From positions 92,409-156,408 of the forward strand of contig CAWHAA010000006.1 in assembly GCA_963827275.1 (NCBI GenBank): 64,000 bases of DNA, written 5' to 3'. Numbering within the stretch: the stretch's first letter is position 1; every line of letters starts with the position of its first letter. The notes below the pieces were generated by a model, which did not search any database, had not been told where the DNA came from, and worked only from the letters and a program-made list of their open reading frames with translations. Position numbers and translations under genes: made by a program. This stretch comes from an uncultured Spirochaetota bacterium (lineage in GTDB: Bacteria; Spirochaetota; UBA4802; UBA5550). Shown here one piece after another: positions 43,277 to 54,454 of this stretch.

Positions 43277-45580
43277 ATGCGCCAGATAAAGAGAGTTTCG
43301 ATTATCGGTGCGGGTTCGTGGGGCACCGCTGTTGCCAAATCGATCGCGGAATCAAAGCCGCACCTTGCCGTTGTCATGTGGGCCTATGAGCGCCCCGTGG
43401 CCGCTTCAATCAATTCATCTCATGAGAACGCCGAGTTCCTTCCCGGGACGCAGCTTCCCGCGTCAATAACCGCAACGAACGACCTCGAGGAGGCGGTCAA
43501 AGGAACGGATGTCGTCATCCTTGCTACGCCCTCGAAGGCGGCGTACGATGTATGCCGTAAAATGGCGAAGCACGTAACGGGCGAGATGTACGTCGGCTTC
43601 CTGACCAAGGGCTTCTGCAAGATAGACGGGCAGGTGCTGACAATATCACAGGCGATGGAGAGGGCCATGCCCCGGACCGCGGGGAGGATCGTCGCCATCT
43701 CGGGACCGAGCCACGCCGAAGAGGTGTGCCGGCGGTTCCATACCTGCCTGAACGCCGGGAGCGAATCGGAGGAGGCCAGGACCGTCATCGCGGGGCTCCT
43801 TACATCGGAATGGGTCCAGTGCCGGACCACCGCGGACATACGCGCCGTGGAGGTGGGCGGGACGCTGAAAAACCCCGCGGCCATCGCGGCCGGCATGATC
43901 AGCGCACTGCCGCGGTGCGGCGACAACCTGGCGGGCGCCCTCATCTCGGAGGCGCTCAAGGAGATGGTGCGGCTCGGCAGGGTGTTCGGCATCAGCGAGG
44001 ACGGCATGATCGACATCTCGGGTCTCGGCGACCTTGTCGCAACGGCCCTGAGCCAGCACAGCAGGAACCGCAGGTTCGGCAGGGACATCGCCGGCCAGAT
44101 CATGACAAAGGGGAACGCACTCAATCTCTGGGACCGGATTGTGCTGCGGGTCAGGCCGTACAGCGTGATCGAGCGGATGGGCGGGAAATTCCACTACCTC
44201 GCCGAAGGCGCCTATGCGATCGAGCCGCTGATCGAGCTGGCTGAAAAAGAAAAAATATCAATACCGGTCTACCGCGCACTCTACGAGGTGCTGTTGAACA
44301 AGAAGGACCCATCGCTCCTCATCGAGACCATAAAGAACCCGGAGCGGTTCAACGAGCTGTTTTTCAGCACGAAGATACAGATTGCCGGCAGGAAGAGGGG
44401 CCTTGAGACGATCAAGGGCAAAGCGTTCAGGGAGCACATCATCGCCATGACGATGGAGCGCTTCGTCGCGAAAAAGAATGACGGATTGCTGCCATACGGC
44501 ACGGGCGACGTGATACACGCCCTCGCTGATTCCCTCCGGAAGCAGGGGATCACCGGCGCGGAGGCGGCGATTATCCGCGGCATGAACAGCGATAACTACG
44601 GTGATTCAATCAGCCGGCTTGCGGGCATGTATATCGATGATATCGCCGACAGCTACAGCACCTGGTTCAAGTGGCTCTGCCTCATCGGGTTTGCGTTTTC
44701 CCGCATCGGCTCACTGTTCATGAAAAGAACGAACGGGCTCGTCGTTTCGGGTCCGCTGGATGAAATACGCAGGGTCGGCAGACAGGTTACCATCCTGTAC
44801 GCTGCGCCGTTCCAGGACCGGCGCGATGCTATGTTCGCCGCTATGTCAATCGCGCGCTCGCGGCTGCCGTTTCCGCGCTTTCAGGTTGACGCAGGGCTCG
44901 GGGCGCGTGAACGGTTGCTGCTGAAGAGGTGCGGGGGGTTCACCATCGACAGGAATAAGCTCGACAACATGGTATACCGTGAAACGCTGGTGCAGTACCT
45001 TTCCACCATGGCGGGACACGGTGTCCCGGTGCTTTCCATGCTCCCCATCGGGACGGAAGCCACGGCGCAGGGCGAACGCAATGTCCTTGTCTCTGCCATA
45101 ACCGAATGCATGTACCGGCATGCTGCCGAACTGGCCCTGGTCCCGTTCGGCGTATCCTATCTCGGCAGGCCGGGAGACGGTGGCGCCGCTCCCTCGTTCA
45201 GGGACCTCCTGTCCGCTACCGCATGGGTCAATTTCTCAAAACCGATCCGGCTTTCCGAATACACGAAACAACCGCATATGATGGTAGGTCTTCCCGGGAT
45301 CGTCGCCGGCATCTGGGAGAAGGAGAGAAAAATCCTGCCGCATTACCTCCTCTGCAAGGCGCTCGCGGAACATGGATTTTCCGTAAAACAGGCGGATGCT
45401 ATCGTGTTCGTGAAGAAGTACATGCGGCGTGCCGGCAGGCGATTCGATCACAACCCGACACGGACCGTCCGCAAGGGATTGGCATATCTCGAGGAGAGCG
45501 GGGTTGCCACGTCCGATGGTGTAACTATAGAGGCGGCAGACAGGGAGATGGTCAGCTACTACGCCGGCCTTGTCCCATGA
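43277..45580 (+). CDS. gpsA: NAD(P)H-dependent glycerol-3-phosphate dehydrogenase (GpsA, about 345 aa) fused to a C-terminal domain of about 420 aa of uncertain function, possibly a degenerate PlsB-like glycerol-3-phosphate acyltransferase
   Basis: N-terminus is IIGAGSWGTAVA...ATPSKA...KGF (the GpsA fold), through ...ISIPVYRALYEVL. A continuous ORF then adds 420 aa with no internal stop. The C-terminal part shows weak GPAT-like spacing (APFQDRRD / GGFTIDRN / LPIGTEATAQGER) but no HxxxxD. Confidence 0.7.
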   Translation: MRQIKRVSIIGAGSWGTAVAKSIAESKPHLAVVMWAYERPVAASINSSHENAEFLPGTQLPASITATNDLEEAVKGTDVVILATPSKAAYDVCRKMAKHVTGEMYVGFLTKGFCKIDGQVLTISQAMERAMPRTAGRIVAISGPSHAEEVCRRFHTCLNAGSESEEARTVIAGLLTSEWVQCRTTADIRAVEVGGTLKNPAAIAAGMISALPRCGDNLAGALISEALKEMVRLGRVFGISEDGMIDISGLGDLVATALSQHSRNRRFGRDIAGQIMTKGNALNLWDRIVLRVRPYSVIERMGGKFHYLAEGAYAIEPLIELAEKEKISIPVYRALYEVLLNKKDPSLLIETIKNPERFNELFFSTKIQIAGRKRGLETIKGKAFREHIIAMTMERFVAKKNDGLLPYGTGDVIHALADSLRKQGITGAEAAIIRGMNSDNYGDSISRLAGMYIDDIADSYSTWFKWLCLIGFAFSRIGSLFMKRTNGLVVSGPLDEIRRVGRQVTILYAAPFQDRRDAMFAAMSIARSRLPFPRFQVDAGLGARERLLLKRCGGFTIDRNKLDNMVYRETLVQYLSTMAGHGVPVLSMLPIGTEATAQGERNVLVSAITECMYRHAAELALVPFGVSYLGRPGDGGAAPSFRDLLSATAWVNFSKPIRLSEYTKQPHMMVGLPGIVAGIWEKERKILPHYLLCKALAEHGFSVKQADAIVFVKKYMRRAGRRFDHNPTRTVRKGLAYLEESGVATSDGVTIEAADREMVSYYAGLVP

Positions 45581-45586
45581 CGCCTG

Positions 45587-46996
45587 CTAAACGCGGAACA
45601 GGTGCTCAAAGGTCCCGTACAGCACCTGTACAAGCTGTGACCGTCCGTCAAGGGAGCCGGACATCCCGTACAGTGCGCCGCTCCGCGCGCTGGTGCCTTC
45701 CTTCGATTTCGCGTATTTGACCCCCTCTCTCAGGTCGCCCACGAGCTCATCGGCAATGCCCGGAACCATTGTCTGCGGCATGGTGACGCAAAAATGCACC
45801 GCTGGCGGGTTCTGCAGACCGTTGAACCTCCATCCGCGCGATATCATGTAGTCATTGACGTGAAAGATGTCAACGTCCCCGGACCTGAAGCTGATAAGGA
45901 ATGTCGGGTCTCCGATGACCTGCAGCTCCGGTATCCCTTTCACCCCCTCCTTGATCCGTTCGGCGACCTTCATTATCGCGGACGCGGCCTGCAGGTAGCC
46001 CTCCTCGCCGAGGTACACCATTGTCGCCCAGGTGGACGCGGTCAGCCCCCCGGAGCGGCTTCCGGTCATTGAGGGCGACGCGTATATGCCACCGGGCCAG
46101 TGGGCCATCTGGAAAAACTGGTACCGCCGGAGCTTCAGGTTGCGGTACAGGACCACGGAATTTCCCTTGAGGCCGAAGCCGAACTTGTGAGTGTCGGCAG
46201 ACATGGACGTGAGGCCCGGCAGGCGGAAATCGAATACCGGCACCCGGTAACCGAGACGCTCGATCCATGGAAGGATGAATCCGCCGAGGCACCCGTCGAT
46301 ATGGAACCCGATGTCGTGCTCCAGCGCGATGCCGGAGAGCTCCTCCATCGGGTCAATAAGCCCGTAGGGGTAGTTGCCGGCGCTCCCGACGATCGCCACT
46401 GTATTGGCGTTGATGAGTTTCTTCACTTCGGCGGGGATCACGCGGAAATCAGCATCATTCACGGGCGCCAGGACCATCTTGATCCCGAAATACTCACCCG
46501 CCTTGTGAAACGCGGGATGCGCCGTTATCGGGAGGATTACTTCCGGGGCGGCGATATTTTTTTCAATGCGGCCCCTGTCGCGGTACACCTTCATGGGCAG
46601 CATGATGCTTTCGCTGCCGCCGAAGGTGACGGTGCCGCAGATTTCGTCTGCCGGATTGACGGCGCGCACCGCGTCCCCGTTAAGCATCCGGGCGGTCATG
46701 GACACTATCTCGCTTTCGAACTTGGACATGCTGGGGCAGAGGTCCACCTGGAGAACGTTGACGTGGGAAAAGAATGAAAAGGCCCTGTTCAGAAACTCTC
46801 GGTGCTCATCGCCGGCATGGTAGAATGTTCCCGAGACCCTGCCGTCTTTCCATTTCGCATTTTCTTCAGCGGACATGGTTGACAGCTCTTGTAAAATGTC
46901 ATCCCGTTCCCGCCCTTTTTCCGGAATACGTTCGTAACTCCTGAACCGTCCACGGTAGGGCTTGAACGGGTCAGCAAAGGGTTTCTGTTCTTGCAT
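45587..46996 (-). CDS. PLP-dependent fold-type I enzyme, group II decarboxylase / sphingosine-1-phosphate-lyase-like
   Basis: 469 aa. The central region SMSADTHKFGFGLKGNSVVLY contains a PLP-lysine in the HKFG context typical of group II decarboxylases. Confidence 0.6.
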   Translation of the reverse strand: MQEQKPFADPFKPYRGRFRSYERIPEKGRERDDILQELSTMSAEENAKWKDGRVSGTFYHAGDEHREFLNRAFSFFSHVNVLQVDLCPSMSKFESEIVSMTARMLNGDAVRAVNPADEICGTVTFGGSESIMLPMKVYRDRGRIEKNIAAPEVILPITAHPAFHKAGEYFGIKMVLAPVNDADFRVIPAEVKKLINANTVAIVGSAGNYPYGLIDPMEELSGIALEHDIGFHIDGCLGGFILPWIERLGYRVPVFDFRLPGLTSMSADTHKFGFGLKGNSVVLYRNLKLRRYQFFQMAHWPGGIYASPSMTGSRSGGLTASTWATMVYLGEEGYLQAASAIMKVAERIKEGVKGIPELQVIGDPTFLISFRSGDVDIFHVNDYMISRGWRFNGLQNPPAVHFCVTMPQTMVPGIADELVGDLREGVKYAKSKEGTSARSGALYGMSGSLDGRSQLVQVLYGTFEHLFRV

Positions 46997-47029
46997 GGCG
47001 CTCTCCTTTCGGTAATGGCTCCGTTGACG

Positions 47030-48640
47030 CTATCGCGCGTTCAACGCGTTGAATATCGGTTTGTTTCGCCTGAATAATTCCCTGTACTGCCGGTACATCC
47101 TGTCATAGACGGCCCGGCTGGCGGGGTCGGGACGGAAGACCTTTTTGATCGTGATAAGCGAGGAGATCTCCCTGACGGAACGGTGCCCGAGCCGGTTAAA
47201 GGCGAGCATGGCGGCGCCGCGGAGGGTGGTGCGGGCAGGGTCCTCGACCTGGTGGATCGGGACGCCGAGGACGTCCGCATGGATCTGCGCCCATATATCG
47301 GAGAGGGCGCCCCCGCCGGCGAACCGGAACCGGTGAAAGGCGCGGCCGGTAAATTTTTCAGCGACCTCGCGCGTCCACCGGTTGTTGTACGCGAGGCTCT
47401 CAAGCACGGCACGCGTCATGTGCGCGCGGGTCGATCCCAGGGAAAGGTTGAAGAAACCTCCCCGCACGTCCCCGTTCTCCTCGGGGGTTATGGTGCCGTT
47501 CAGCCATGGCATGAAAATGACGCCTCCGCTGCCCGGCGGCACGCTCGCGGCGAGGCGGTTTACCCTGTGGTAAACGTCCTCGGGCGGCGCCGCGGTCCCG
47601 AACTCGTCGCGGGCATACACGATCGCATTGAGGAAATATTCGAGCGCCTTGCCGCCGGTCCCCTGCTCCCCGAAGAGGAGGTAGCGATTCATCAGCGGGC
47701 TCGGCATCGTGGTCATGGCGTGAAAGATGTCGGTTTTTTTATAAGGAACATGGCAGGTCAGGACGAGCGACGTCCCGATATAGATTACTCCATCATAATC
47801 GTCGACCGCTCCGGAGCCGATGGCCGACGCGTTCGTGTCGTTTGTTCCGGCAATGACGCGCGCGGACGGGGGGAGGCCGAGCTCCTGCGCGACAGCGGGA
47901 AGGACCGTGCCGATGAATTCTTTGTTGGGCACAAGGTCGGGAAGCTTGTCCCGCGGCAGCCCGGCAAGGGAGAGCAGGGACCTGCTGTATTCGGTGGTGC
48001 CCCAGGTGCGGTTGTCCACGACCGCGAAGGGGAACATGGTCTCCTGTGAAGCGGTGCATTTCCCGGAAAGCCGCAGGTTAATGTAATCCATAGGCTCGAG
48101 AAATTTCCATGTTTTATTGAAAATGTCCGGCCGTTCGTTTTTTAAAAAATGTATGTGCCCGATTGAATCGATCCCTGACTTGCTCGGCGCGATACCCGTC
48201 AGCCGTATCCACCTGGCCAGCTTTGTGCAGCCATACCCCTCGATGTTTATGATGCCGCGGATGATGCGCCTGTTGTAGGGGGCCCCGCGGGAATCGAGCC
48301 AGTGGATGGCGTTCATCAGCGGCTCGCCGGCGGTATCGACCGGGACGACGACAAAGAACTGGGAGTCGCAGCTGACGGCATCGATCATGGAGCGGGGGAC
48401 GCCTGAAGAGGCGATCGCCTTTTTCGCCGCGCTTTTAACGCCGGACCACCAGGCGGACGGGTCCTGTTCGGCCCCGCCGGAAGGCAGCAGCTCTACCGGG
48501 ACTTTTACTGATGCGCTTGACATCACGCGGCCGGAGTCGGAAATGATCCCTGCCTTGGGGCCGCCGCTCCCGAGGTCGATTGCAAGCACGTACCTGGTCC
48601 CGTTCTTTTCGGGGGATGACTTTTTCTTCCCGTCAGGCAT
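47030..48640 (-). CDS. FGGY-family carbohydrate kinase (xylulokinase / glycerol kinase-like)
   Basis: N-terminal actin-fold motif YVLAIDLGSGGPKAG, central and C-terminal FGGY motifs (GTSLVL..., FRFAGGGALSD). The start is moved to an internal ATG (MPDGKK) to limit overlap with the upstream gene. Confidence 0.8.
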   Translation of the reverse strand: MPDGKKKSSPEKNGTRYVLAIDLGSGGPKAGIISDSGRVMSSASVKVPVELLPSGGAEQDPSAWWSGVKSAAKKAIASSGVPRSMIDAVSCDSQFFVVVPVDTAGEPLMNAIHWLDSRGAPYNRRIIRGIINIEGYGCTKLARWIRLTGIAPSKSGIDSIGHIHFLKNERPDIFNKTWKFLEPMDYINLRLSGKCTASQETMFPFAVVDNRTWGTTEYSRSLLSLAGLPRDKLPDLVPNKEFIGTVLPAVAQELGLPPSARVIAGTNDTNASAIGSGAVDDYDGVIYIGTSLVLTCHVPYKKTDIFHAMTTMPSPLMNRYLLFGEQGTGGKALEYFLNAIVYARDEFGTAAPPEDVYHRVNRLAASVPPGSGGVIFMPWLNGTITPEENGDVRGGFFNLSLGSTRAHMTRAVLESLAYNNRWTREVAEKFTGRAFHRFRFAGGGALSDIWAQIHADVLGVPIHQVEDPARTTLRGAAMLAFNRLGHRSVREISSLITIKKVFRPDPASRAVYDRMYRQYRELFRRNKPIFNALNAR

Positions 48641-49022
48641 CCTGAGTGCCTTCCCGCATCGTTTTTGAATATTCTTCGAGCTTCGCGATGACAAAGTCCC
48701 TCACTGACGGGTCGATGTTTTCAGACCGCTCCCTGAATTTTCCGATTATCTCTTCAAAAGGGAATATGCCGTCATCGACAAGGAGGGGCGATGCCGGGTG
48801 CTTGTAGTGTGACCGTGTATCGTCGATCGCATGGTGGCTGAACCCTGAGGCCCTGTGCCACATGAAGGCATGCTCGTCCGCCTTTTTGTCGTAACAGAGC
48901 TGGATGCCGGTTATCGACCTGTCGGCCGTATCGTACCATATGATGAGATCGAAGTAATCATCGTCGAACCATCTGCGAAAAATATCCGGCTCCTTCTGGC
49001 TGGCGAACGACTCTTTAAGCAT
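48633..49022 (-). CDS. hypothetical protein (129 aa)
   Basis: Coding-like codon bias. 8-nt overlap with both neighbours. No recognisable motif. Confidence 0.4.
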   Translation of the reverse strand: MLKESFASQKEPDIFRRWFDDDYFDLIIWYDTADRSITGIQLCYDKKADEHAFMWHRASGFSHHAIDDTRSHYKHPASPLLVDDGIFPFEEIIGKFRERSENIDPSVRDFVIAKLEEYSKTMREGTQDA

Positions 49023-49552: not shown

Positions 49553-50467
49553 TCAGAGCTTTTCGAGAAAGAGATAGAGATCCTGCGGCGTGGCGATAGC
49601 CGTAGCGATCACCTTGTACGGGATATTGTTGCCGTGGTACAGGAAGTCCAGTTTGTTGCGCTTGATATCGAGGCTCTGCTTCGTCTGCTCATCGTAAAGG
49701 ACAACATAGTTCGAGAGGGAGAGGGCGAAGATGGTCACTCTCGGGGGATAGGTTTCTTTCAGCCTGTTGACGATGAAATTGGAAAAATCGACGATATTGA
49801 ACACCCCCTCCCTGGAGAAGGCGCCGGTGGATTTGAACAGGATGAATTGATCGGCGTAAACCGCCCCGCTTTTGCCGGCGTTGAATATCCGTGAGATTTC
49901 GGCTGATATGTCGCTCATGTAGTTGAGCATCACGGGCGAAAAGAGCTCGCGGTTCCTGAGGTACACGGTCTTCAAAAGCTCGGAAAGAAATTCAAAATCG
50001 GCAACATTGAAGAGCGGGGACGAGGTGACCGCAGCGGTGAAGATGGTATCCCTGTCAGCGGAGATCTTTTTAAAGACGAGTGAGAAGGACTGGCCTTTCT
50101 GGCTCCCGAGGCGGACCCTGACGGGCTTTTCGCCCTCCGCGGCAGCGCATTCACGCGCAATCAGCTCCGGGAGCGCGTTCAGGAGCACCATGTCGCCTAC
50201 CGCCGCGATGGGCACGGGGGAGCCGTTACGCTCGGTGAATATCGCGGTCAGGCCGGTGTAGTTTGCGACATTATGATGATGCAGGGCGCCCTTTAAAAAA
50301 CCGCTCCCCTGTTCGGAGATGTATCGTGCCTCGAATTTCTTATAGTGGGAAAGGAGTACCCGGTAGGCGTTTCTCGCCTTCTCGGGGGACAGGGCCCCGC
50401 CGGAATACCCCTTGATGGTCTCCTTTATCTGGTCGATGAGGATGTCGATGTTGGCGGTTTCAGTCAT
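49553..50467 (-). CDS. hypothetical protein (304 aa)
   Basis: Long ORF with coding-like composition, co-directional with its neighbours. No motif recognised. Confidence 0.4.
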   Translation of the reverse strand: MTETANIDILIDQIKETIKGYSGGALSPEKARNAYRVLLSHYKKFEARYISEQGSGFLKGALHHHNVANYTGLTAIFTERNGSPVPIAAVGDMVLLNALPELIARECAAAEGEKPVRVRLGSQKGQSFSLVFKKISADRDTIFTAAVTSSPLFNVADFEFLSELLKTVYLRNRELFSPVMLNYMSDISAEISRIFNAGKSGAVYADQFILFKSTGAFSREGVFNIVDFSNFIVNRLKETYPPRVTIFALSLSNYVVLYDEQTKQSLDIKRNKLDFLYHGNNIPYKVIATAIATPQDLYLFLEKL

Positions 50468-52732: not shown

Positions 52733-54454
52733 TCAGATGAGCATGATCGCCGTACAGAGGACCATGAGAAACGCAAGGTTGGCATCGACCAGGACTTCGT
52801 ATTTCAACGCGATAAGATAATTGAGCCGGTTTATCAGGATAATCAGCGCCTCGTAATATATGAGTGTCACCGCGAGGGGCAGAAAGCGCCATTCGCTGAA
52901 CACGACGGTCAGCGCGGCATAGACCGCGACGCCGGCAGCGGAGACAATCGCGGTCAGCAGCCTCATTGCGCGGGTGCCCACCATGATCGGGAGCGTCTCC
53001 CTGCCGAGTATCAGGTCGCCCTGGAACGCGATCATGTCCATCAGTGCGGTCCTGAGAAAGACCAGCGCGAACACAAGGACGGAGAGGGCGGCAAGCGGGG
53101 CAGGCGCCAGTCCGGCAGCGGACATCGGCGTGAGCACGGTGATGATGATCCAGCCAAAACAGGCGACTATTTTCGAATTGTAGATTTTCCGCATGAACCG
53201 CGGGTGGATCCTGGAAACAGTGCTTTTAACCGGCCGGGTTGAATAGATAAAGCCAAGGAGGTATGACCCGGCGACAAGCGCGACCGTCGCTGCGGTAAAA
53301 CGCCCGGCGAGAAAGACCGACAGGAGCATTGCGGCGATCGAGGCCAGGAGAAAGGGCATGCCGTACCTGCCGTAGACGGCATATTTATACGGGTTGCTCA
53401 GCTTCAGCAGGTCTCTTTCGAAGTAATTGTTGATTGAGTACATTGAAAAGATATATAGGAACGAGATGACCGGCAGCTCGTAGCTGACCGGCGTATCCGT
53501 ATATTCAAAGGTGATCATGGTGAGGAAAAAAGCCGCGGCTGCGGCAAGCAGGTTTGTCCGCACGATCATCTCAACGAAGGACACTGCCGCCTTGATGAAA
53601 ATATTGCTCTTTTTGAAATTGATCGTGTACAGCCGCTCCAGGACGTTGTTGATGATCCAGCCGGGGGTTGACGTTCCCGCCGTGACCAGGACGCTCCGGG
53701 AATCCCTGAAGTCCCTTTCGTCCAGCTCCGCTTCTGTTTCCACGTGGAAGGTTTTGACGGCATTGTCCCTGCCGATCTGGGCCAGCCGTTTTGTGTTCGC
53801 GGAATTCTTTCCGCCGACCACCACGAGCGTGTCCGTGCCGCTGGATATGCCGAGGAATACGTCCTCCTGCCGGTAGCGGGTGGAGTCGCAGATCGTATCG
53901 AAGACCGTGACGTCGGCGAATTTTTCCTTTATGCGGGAGACGATCATGGTGAAAAGCTTGCGGTCGAAGGTGGTCTGTGAAACGACCAGGTAGGAGGCGG
54001 CAGGCGGGACATCATCCACTTCCCGGATGTCCGATATGACGGAGACGCCGCCCGACGCGTAGCTCATCAGGCCGGTGACCTCGGCATGGTCGCGGTCACC
54101 GGTGATGATGGTGTGCTTGTTCATGGCGGAATATTTTTTTATGATCGACTGCACGCGGGCGACCCGCGGGCAGGTCAGGTTGATGACGGCGCTGGCGCAT
54201 TTGTTCAGCGTGCGGTTGTCTTCAACCGGGACGCCGTGGGTGCGTATGACGACGCGCTTGTTCCCGATCTCCTCTATCGAGGAAATGGTGCGCATCCCCC
54301 TGCGATGGAGCACGTCGATGGTCTGCGGGTTGTGTATCAGCGGGCCGTATACCAGGAGCTCTTCATCGGAGGCGTTTATCTCGCGGACGATACGGAGGAT
54401 GGCGTTTCTCACGCCCATGCAGAATCCCGAGTGGCGCGCCAGGGTGATCTTCAT
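52733..54454 (-). CDS. ispH: 4-hydroxy-3-methylbut-2-enyl diphosphate reductase (IspH/LytB, N-terminal 290 aa) fused in one ORF to a C-terminal UbiA-superfamily membrane prenyltransferase-like domain (280 aa, about 8 TM)
   Basis: N-terminus is MKITLARHSGFCMGVRNAI...GPLIHNPQ...NSANTKRLAQI, the IspH fold with its Cys ligand context. After ...GWIINNVLERL there is a continuous hydrophobic domain carrying UbiA-type motifs NNYFERDLLKLSNPYK (NDxxDRxxD..NxPxR-like) and FQGDLILGRETLPIMVG (the DxxGDxxxGxxTLP motif). Confidence 0.7.
   Translation of the reverse strand: MKITLARHSGFCMGVRNAILRIVREINASDEELLVYGPLIHNPQTIDVLHRRGMRTISSIEEIGNKRVVIRTHGVPVEDNRTLNKCASAVINLTCPRVARVQSIIKKYSAMNKHTIITGDRDHAEVTGLMSYASGGVSVISDIREVDDVPPAASYLVVSQTTFDRKLFTMIVSRIKEKFADVTVFDTICDSTRYRQEDVFLGISSGTDTLVVVGGKNSANTKRLAQIGRDNAVKTFHVETEAELDERDFRDSRSVLVTAGTSTPGWIINNVLERLYTINFKKSNIFIKAAVSFVEMIVRTNLLAAAAAFFLTMITFEYTDTPVSYELPVISFLYIFSMYSINNYFERDLLKLSNPYKYAVYGRYGMPFLLASIAAMLLSVFLAGRFTAATVALVAGSYLLGFIYSTRPVKSTVSRIHPRFMRKIYNSKIVACFGWIIITVLTPMSAAGLAPAPLAALSVLVFALVFLRTALMDMIAFQGDLILGRETLPIMVGTRAMRLLTAIVSAAGVAVYAALTVVFSEWRFLPLAVTLIYYEALIILINRLNYLIALKYEVLVDANLAFLMVLCTAIMLI

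Follow-up and report, generated by a model that had tools for sequence, protein, structure and literature searches.

Within a 64,000-nucleotide stretch of DNA from an uncultured Spirochaetota bacterium (GenBank assembly GCA_963827275.1, contig CAWHAA010000006.1, positions 92,409 to 156,408 of the forward strand; henceforth the window), one gene encodes a 767-residue protein in which the glycerol-3-phosphate dehydrogenase GpsA runs on into a C-terminal extension with the fold of the glycerol-3-phosphate acyltransferases (GPATs) PlsB and GPAT1, followed by a winged helix. Judged from its sequence, the acyltransferase half is a pseudoenzyme that has kept its fold, is under purifying selection and is still a working domain. 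The reading towards which we lean, giving it a little more than an even chance, is that GpsA has become permanently fused to this PlsB/GPAT1-type pseudoenzyme and winged helix, the dead domain having a lipid-facing, non-catalytic role.

How bacteria match the glycerol backbone of their lipids to the supply of fatty acids is understood mainly in Escherichia coli, in terms of feedback by glycerol-3-phosphate (G3P) on GpsA and of control at PlsB. With this fusion a whole clade has run an experiment of its own: the enzyme that makes the backbone is joined to a copy of the enzyme that uses it, a copy apparently without chemistry but still selected. Should the dead domain prove to sense lipids, or to hold GpsA at the membrane, it would offer a compact, testable case of a pseudoenzyme that controls the enzyme one step before it, and if it is indeed a sensor, the fusion would be a previously undescribed control point of bacterial phospholipid synthesis. 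Both domain families are already known, as is the three-domain architecture, which stands in databases for Leptospira under a generic name; a search of the literature turned up neither a GpsA-GPAT fusion nor a GPAT pseudoenzyme of this type. The parts of the protein are as follows (aa, amino acids; E, expectation value; ORF, open reading frame).

43277..45580, plus strand: whole fusion ORF, 767 aa and stop codon, with an ATG start and no internal stops (ORF list)
43295..43774, plus strand: GpsA N-terminal Rossmann domain, aa 7-166 (Pfam PF01210, NAD_Gly3P_dh_N, E 1.9e-39)
43835..44323, plus strand: GpsA C-terminal substrate domain, aa 187-349 (Pfam PF07479, NAD_Gly3P_dh_C, E 9.6e-32)
44102..44194, plus strand: insertion of about 25-30 aa, specific to the family, in the GpsA C-domain, aa ~276-306, beginning LWDRIVLRVRPYSVIERM
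44315..44341, plus strand: junction motif LLIETIKNP, aa 347-355, where the GpsA fold ends (from conservation)
44342..44656, plus strand: helical linker, aa 356-460 (helices predicted in models)
44660..44719, plus strand: hydrophobic helix TWFKWLCLIGFAFSRIGSLF, aa 462-481 (Kyte-Doolittle hydropathy and PlsB alignment)
44732..45256, plus strand: PlsB/GPAT1-type acyltransferase-fold core, catalytically degenerate, aa 486-660
44798..44833, plus strand: degenerate motif I, YAAPFQDRRDAM, aa 508-519, with F512 in the column of the catalytic His and D517 kept (PlsB alignment)
44930..44956, plus strand: motif II remnant CGGFTIDRN, aa 552-560 (PlsB alignment)
45032..45070, plus strand: lost motif III, LSMLPIGTEATAQ, aa 586-598, in place of F-x-E-G-x-R-S-R-x-G (PlsB alignment)
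45134..45160, plus strand: motif IV equivalent ALVPFGVSY, aa 620-628, whose P623, present in 70 of 70 family members, aligns to a PlsB-invariant Pro
45338..45577, plus strand: winged-helix tail, aa ~688-767

A PlsB/GPAT1-type fold in the extension

Standard tools are silent on the extension. Pfam and NCBIfam scans of aa 346-767 detected no domain, a sequence search of the PDB with the extension alone came back empty, and the window protein failed to match the Pfam acyltransferase model PF01553 even at E up to 10. The acyltransferase-like domain of the window's branch escapes standard domain libraries altogether, so that its proteins are recorded as ordinary GpsA or as GpsA of odd length. The homology emerged only once a family profile had been built. 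Profile A2, made from 12 extensions, found in the PDB (hmmsearch) two glycerol-3-phosphate acyltransferases, 9vuq_E (E 9e-5), whose residue numbering agrees with that of the ThPlsB preprint, and human mitochondrial GPAT1 (8e4y, E 0.003), and nothing else of note; in both alignments the acyltransferase blocks are in register. Eight of 12 close relatives match PF01553 individually (best E 7.7e-7). An exhaustive hidden Markov model (HMM) search of 1.84 billion representatives brought up some 50 clusters that belong to the fusion family and below them a continuous tail at E 1e-15 to 1e-10, sampled members of which reach curated PlsB models. Profile-profile alignment (hhalign) against 20 bona fide PlsB sequences gave 99.65% probability (E 3.8e-25, 302 columns), with aa 442-754 of the window protein aligned to PlsB residues ~244-589, that is, the middle catalytic domain and the start of the C-terminal domain. 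A first-pass annotation made from the letters alone had read the extension as a possibly degenerate acyltransferase on GpsA and proposed an HMM or HHpred search of it; that reading is supported, and the search places the extension in a family of lipid enzymes.

Structure prediction concurs. The AlphaFold model of the extension (predicted local distance difference test, pLDDT, 80.4; predicted template modelling score, pTM, 0.80) shows the acyltransferase alpha/beta fold, and its sole significant Foldseek match is human GPAT1 (E 1.5e-11, template modelling score 0.60). Compared with PlsB, the window protein has GpsA in place of the N-terminal domain, has lost the membrane-anchor helix that follows motif IV, and lacks most of the full, dimerising C-terminal domain; the window protein reaches no Pfam or NCBIfam acyltransferase model. 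The winged-helix tail is wholly missing in 17 of the 70 family members that were aligned with PlsB for residue tabulation, to which the counts out of 70 given here refer.

Loss of catalytic residues

Residues on which these acyltransferases depend for catalysis have been lost. The first-pass annotation had noted that the extension lacks HxxxxD, and the translation agrees: none of the eight His residues in aa 356-767 has an Asp at +5. The His column of motif I holds Phe in 19 of 70 sequences, Tyr in 12, Ala in six, His in only five, and nine other residues elsewhere, and the residue is exchanged even between relatives 86-91% identical (H/Y in L038/L040, 91%; H/L in L008/L009), so that the column is not under selection; the motif I Asp, D517, survives in 63. 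Of motif II (G-x-x-F-x-x-R), G553 (70/70) and F555 persist, the Arg-Arg pair of PlsB is represented by D558 and R559, and R559, which aligns to an Arg that contacts acyl-CoA in PlsB, is Arg in only 18. In the window protein, P590, I591, T593, E594, A595 and A597 stand where motif III of PlsB has its invariant E, G, R, S, R and G; family-wide the Glu is kept in 22 of 70 and the Arg residues in none. The AAGxNL block of PlsB is lost as well, and R534, invariant in the family, replaces the histidine of the PlsB PPH block. The remaining strings that the first-pass annotation had likened to GPAT motifs are readily located (LYAAPFQDRRDAMF at aa 507-520, GGFTIDRNK at aa 553-561, LPIGTEATAQGERN at aa 589-602); its choice of VLVSAI for motif IV was mistaken, the equivalent being LALVPFGVSY at aa 619-628.

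In ThPlsB, very little activity remains after the substitution H366A or D371A, and the G3P phosphate is proposed to bind at Arg448 and Arg450 (bioRxiv 10.1101/2023.04.30.538836). With the motif I His and motif III both gone, acyl transfer is predicted to be absent: by the canonical mechanism, the extension should be unable to acylate G3P.

Conservation and selection

The degenerate domain is nevertheless maintained. In 17 close pairs with unsaturated synonymous divergence (dS), the median ratio of nonsynonymous to synonymous divergence (dN/dS, Nei-Gojobori) is 0.065 in the GpsA half, compared with 0.11 in the linker and core together; values for the tail run from 0.07 to 0.34. Scaffold residues of the core are almost universal (G553, Y574 and P623 in 70 of 70, P533 and G582 in 69, Y567 in 67), and positions 550 and 561 are Arg or Lys in 94-99% of sequences, making up with R534 a basic cluster that probably lies around the former substrate groove.

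Conservation extends upstream. At the junction, L347, L348, E350, T351, I352 and K353 are invariant in family alignment A1. The linker contains a block K-x-G-L-E-x-x-K-G-x-x-F at aa 373-384, with G375, E377, G381 and F384 conserved at 94-97%, and an invariant D458 (70/70), its last part (aa 442-460) already falling within the PlsB alignment. The hydrophobic stretch remarked upon in the first-pass annotation (WFKWLCLIGFAFSRIGSLF, aa 463-481) is real: it belongs to the helix at aa 462-481, which peaks at a 19-residue Kyte-Doolittle value of 1.37 in the window protein, is the most hydrophobic segment in close relatives (1.6-2.25), and aligns with the helix that borders the acyl groove of PlsB, immediately ahead of the catalytic core.

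The GpsA half

The dehydrogenase half is canonical throughout, with its motifs conserved across the 70 family members. The N-domain carries the G-loop IGAGSWGT (aa 10-17), the majority form in the family (49/70), and TKGF (aa 110-113), and the C-domain carries GGTLKNP, GLGDLVATA and SRNRRFG, the last present in 70 of 70 family sequences and the TLKNP core of the first in at least 68. K198, N199, D252, T256, R263, N264 and R265 are invariant in alignment A1; the catalytic role of the TLKN, GDL and SRNRR signature residues is established for GPD1 and GpsA. The score against NCBIfam NF000940 reaches the GpsA cutoff (208.2 vs 202), that against NF000942 falls just under (254.9 vs 257), and the best Foldseek matches are GpsA and GPD1 crystal structures (E ~1e-20). 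With all signature motifs in place, this half is predicted to be enzymatically active as an NAD(P)H-dependent glycerol-3-phosphate dehydrogenase.

Ordinary GpsA proteins, about 330-345 aa long, share with the window protein both Pfam domains, a score above the NF000940 cutoff, the signature motifs and the fold matches; the window protein differs in adding an insertion of about 25 residues to the C-domain, besides the 412-residue extension. The insertion is apparent from the PF07479 match, which covers 163 residues against a 141-position profile, is poorly modelled (pLDDT <50 at aa 279-306), and has a homologue in the Leptospiraceae fusions described below. Among the top fold matches of the GpsA half is the algal enzyme DsGPDH of Dunaliella salina (PDB 6iuy), which we take to carry an additional phosphatase-type domain, reported active and derived from the next enzyme to act on G3P. 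In DsGPDH that extra domain is N-terminal, whereas in the window protein it is C-terminal, of acyltransferase type and predicted to be inactive.

Distribution and integrity of the fusion

The fusion is not rare within its own clade. A sequence search with the extension alone found 12 proteins, all 12 with GpsA domains, and when a single genome of each species was scanned with the junction strings PVYR[SA]LYEV and LIETIKNP as seed, 73 loci emerged, all from uncultured Spirochaetota (metagenome-assembled or single-amplified genomes), confirming in related genomes the architecture that the first-pass annotation had recommended looking for. In about 69 of the 73, the two halves lie in a single uninterrupted ORF; two loci (L066 and L071) have it split, and in two more it is cut by contig ends.

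These counts dispose of the thought that the long ORF might be a sequencing or assembly frameshift that joins gpsA to a downstream gene. Its unusual length and the two split loci might be cited for this, and the first-pass annotation, which had placed the end of GpsA near ISIPVYRALYEVLLNK (aa 327-342) and correctly saw one frame running on from there without a stop, had advised verifying positions 44300..44350. Yet the ORF is continuous in the great majority of independent assemblies, which come from many studies, dN/dS is <0.2 on both sides, and the junction motif LLIETIKNP is nearly invariant; conservation of that motif, with one ORF across it, excludes a frameshift at this place. We regard the artefact as refuted by the scan and by ORF continuity, its residual probability being negligible.

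A sister group in the Leptospiraceae

The search of representatives also yielded a second fusion group (group B), with the canonical motifs PTHRSHLDSV, FPEGTRSRTG and VPIxLSY. It comprises Leptospiraceae, including the cultured Leptospira interrogans (P0177; further examples are P0033, P0169 and P0176), and carries the NCBI name 1-acyl-sn-glycerol-3-phosphate acyltransferase. Group B shares with the window protein the three-part architecture, the insertion in the GpsA C-domain, the junction and the winged-helix tail, and differs in its canonical motifs, in reaching PF01553, in a more divergent GpsA half, and in a genomic context that does not follow rpoD. In a rough neighbour-joining tree rooted on PlsB, it is sister to the window's group. 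The two groups had no assembly prefix in common when these were compared, which does not count against their co-occurring in one genome. The simplest history suggested by these sequences would be one ancient GpsA-GPAT fusion, with acyl transfer subsequently lost in the window's branch. The Leptospiraceae proteins, that of the pathogen included, are candidate bifunctional enzymes leading from dihydroxyacetone phosphate (DHAP) to lysophosphatidate, at present named as a generic acyltransferase.

More speculatively, an ancient bifunctional spirochaete GpsA-GPAT might have split in function, the Leptospiraceae still making lysophosphatidic acid directly from G3P that derives from DHAP while in the window's branch the dead GPAT came to sense acyl donors or anionic lipids, or to provide a docking site for PlsX, PlsY or PlsC, with G3P supply set allosterically by the lipid status of the membrane; this fuller account we would hold only tentatively, as having the balance of probability clearly against it.

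Individual members of group B vary. The GpsA half looks intact in P0031 and P0053 and is eroded in P0032 and P0054, whose G-loops read LGASKDAL or LGGEQLSA, P0032 being also without TLKN and SRNRR; with their canonical acyltransferase halves, these two are the mirror image of the window protein. The L. interrogans protein P0177 (765 aa; CP186579.1, L078 10001-12298) is missing 44 residues relative to P0169, P0176 and P0033, a gap that takes in motif I (HX4D) and the PRY block and leaves FPEGTRSRTG in place; the protein has either undergone an in-frame deletion peculiar to its strain or lineage or lost catalysis a second time, independently. P0035 (L074 4716-6053) is a standalone 445-aa acyltransferase of group-B type, with canonical motifs, linker helices and the winged-helix tail; it lies downstream of a gene for >1500 aa, and no gpsA adjoins it. 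An unfused form of this PlsB-like subfamily therefore exists.

Possible functions of the dead domain

The dead domain probably tethers or regulates rather than catalyses. It may dock on the membrane surface or bind an anionic or acyl lipid ligand; docking would place GpsA where a separate acyltransferase system consumes G3P, or would hold it on a partner enzyme, and ligand binding would alternatively tune GpsA activity to lipid or acyl-donor status. We infer both the binding of membrane or ligand by this domain and any effect that it may have on GpsA. Several observations weigh against this reading. Both membrane anchors of ThPlsB are missing, the one in the N-terminal domain replaced by GpsA and the other, helix 501-522, deleted, so that inheritance of the PlsB anchors by homology is ruled out. 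Across the family the hydrophobic helix is only moderately hydrophobic (median Kyte-Doolittle 1.1, at least 1.6 in 16 of 70), and transmembrane anchoring by it as a family feature is unsupported on this median. The full-length model leaves the geometry between the domains uncertain (pTM 0.48). The idea of a lipid operon fails, the conserved neighbours of the fusion being housekeeping genes not related to lipids, and PlsX, PlsY, PlsC and a second gpsA are all missing from the 64-kb window. Finally, 56 of 70 sequences have His at position 581 (the other 14 have Asn or Tyr), and the retention of H581 together with that of D517 makes an unconventional catalytic arrangement formally possible.

This last point is the starting point for regarding the protein as a true bifunctional GpsA-GPAT, whose extension would acylate G3P or DHAP by unconventional residues and so couple the first two steps of phospholipid synthesis. 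Besides D517 and H581, such an enzyme could draw on the kept fold and hydrophobic groove and on R559 at the acyl-CoA-contacting position, and strong purifying selection and the catalytically intact look of group B are in keeping with it. Nonetheless, we consider it improbable, given a motif I His column that is highly variable (14 different residues by one count) and flips between close relatives, the disappearance of all six PlsB-invariant residues of motif III, the scarcity of Arg at 559, the replacement of H581 in a fifth of the family, and the near-abolition of ThPlsB activity by a His-to-Ala change in motif I. A mere structural or oligomerisation scaffold, serving the folding, stability or dimerisation of GpsA with no tie to membrane or lipid, is rather unlikely, if less easily dismissed: PlsB dimerises through its C-terminal domain, with the start of which the tail here aligns, the co-occurrence of the insertion in the GpsA C-domain with the extension suggests a co-evolved interface, and the known PlsB anchors are absent. 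Against it stand the members that lack the winged-helix tail, the conservation of a hydrophobic helix and of basic residues, probably around the former groove, which exceeds the needs of a scaffold, and the fact that ordinary GpsA requires no such partner. GPAT family members include DHAP acyltransferases, and the N-terminal half might accordingly be imagined as a specialised reductase, for example of acyl-DHAP, with the dead domain as the module that binds its lipid substrate; an acyl groove beside an active site of DHAP/G3P type would suit a lipid-linked substrate, and the NF000942 score is just short of its cutoff. The wholly canonical GpsA motifs, the unbroken conservation of SRNRRFG, the low dN/dS of this half, the NF000940 score above its cutoff and the conserved housekeeping position after rpoD make this very doubtful. 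The reading of a lipid-facing pseudoenzyme that tethers or regulates GpsA is the one that we retain.

Genomic neighbourhood

The fusion ORF starts 58 bp 3' of the rpoD stop codon, and a minus-strand gene ending at 45587 converges on it. The order dnaG-rpoD-fusion recurs in 64-71 of 74 loci, and the other conserved neighbours are an uncharacterised 303-aa protein, SLOG/LOG-like and FolC-like Mur ligase genes, an IspH fusion and secretion-like genes; a diacylglycerol-kinase-like gene occurs in only 27 loci, and Pfam gave no confirmation of it. Of the neighbours downstream, the 303-aa protein (49556-50467, minus strand), in which Pfam matches nothing, is the best conserved, being present in 63 of 74 loci and invariably encoded on the strand opposite to the fusion. 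Separating the fusion from the conserved block farther downstream, 45587-48694 (minus strand) encodes a pyridoxal-phosphate-dependent decarboxylase (PF00282) and an FGGY-family sugar kinase; the pair occupies this position in only 7-9 loci and thus looks like a lineage-specific insertion. Further along, 52736-54454 (minus strand) encodes a 572-aa protein in which an IspH/LytB domain (PF02401, aa 3-275, E 6e-78) is joined to a polytopic membrane half with a weak match to UbiA prenyltransferases (PF01040, E 2e-5, 24.4 bits, under the cutoff of 34.2). Homologues of the same length are found in 41 of 74 loci, and this protein may be another join of consecutive steps, the synthesis of isopentenyl and dimethylallyl diphosphate being followed by prenyl transfer.

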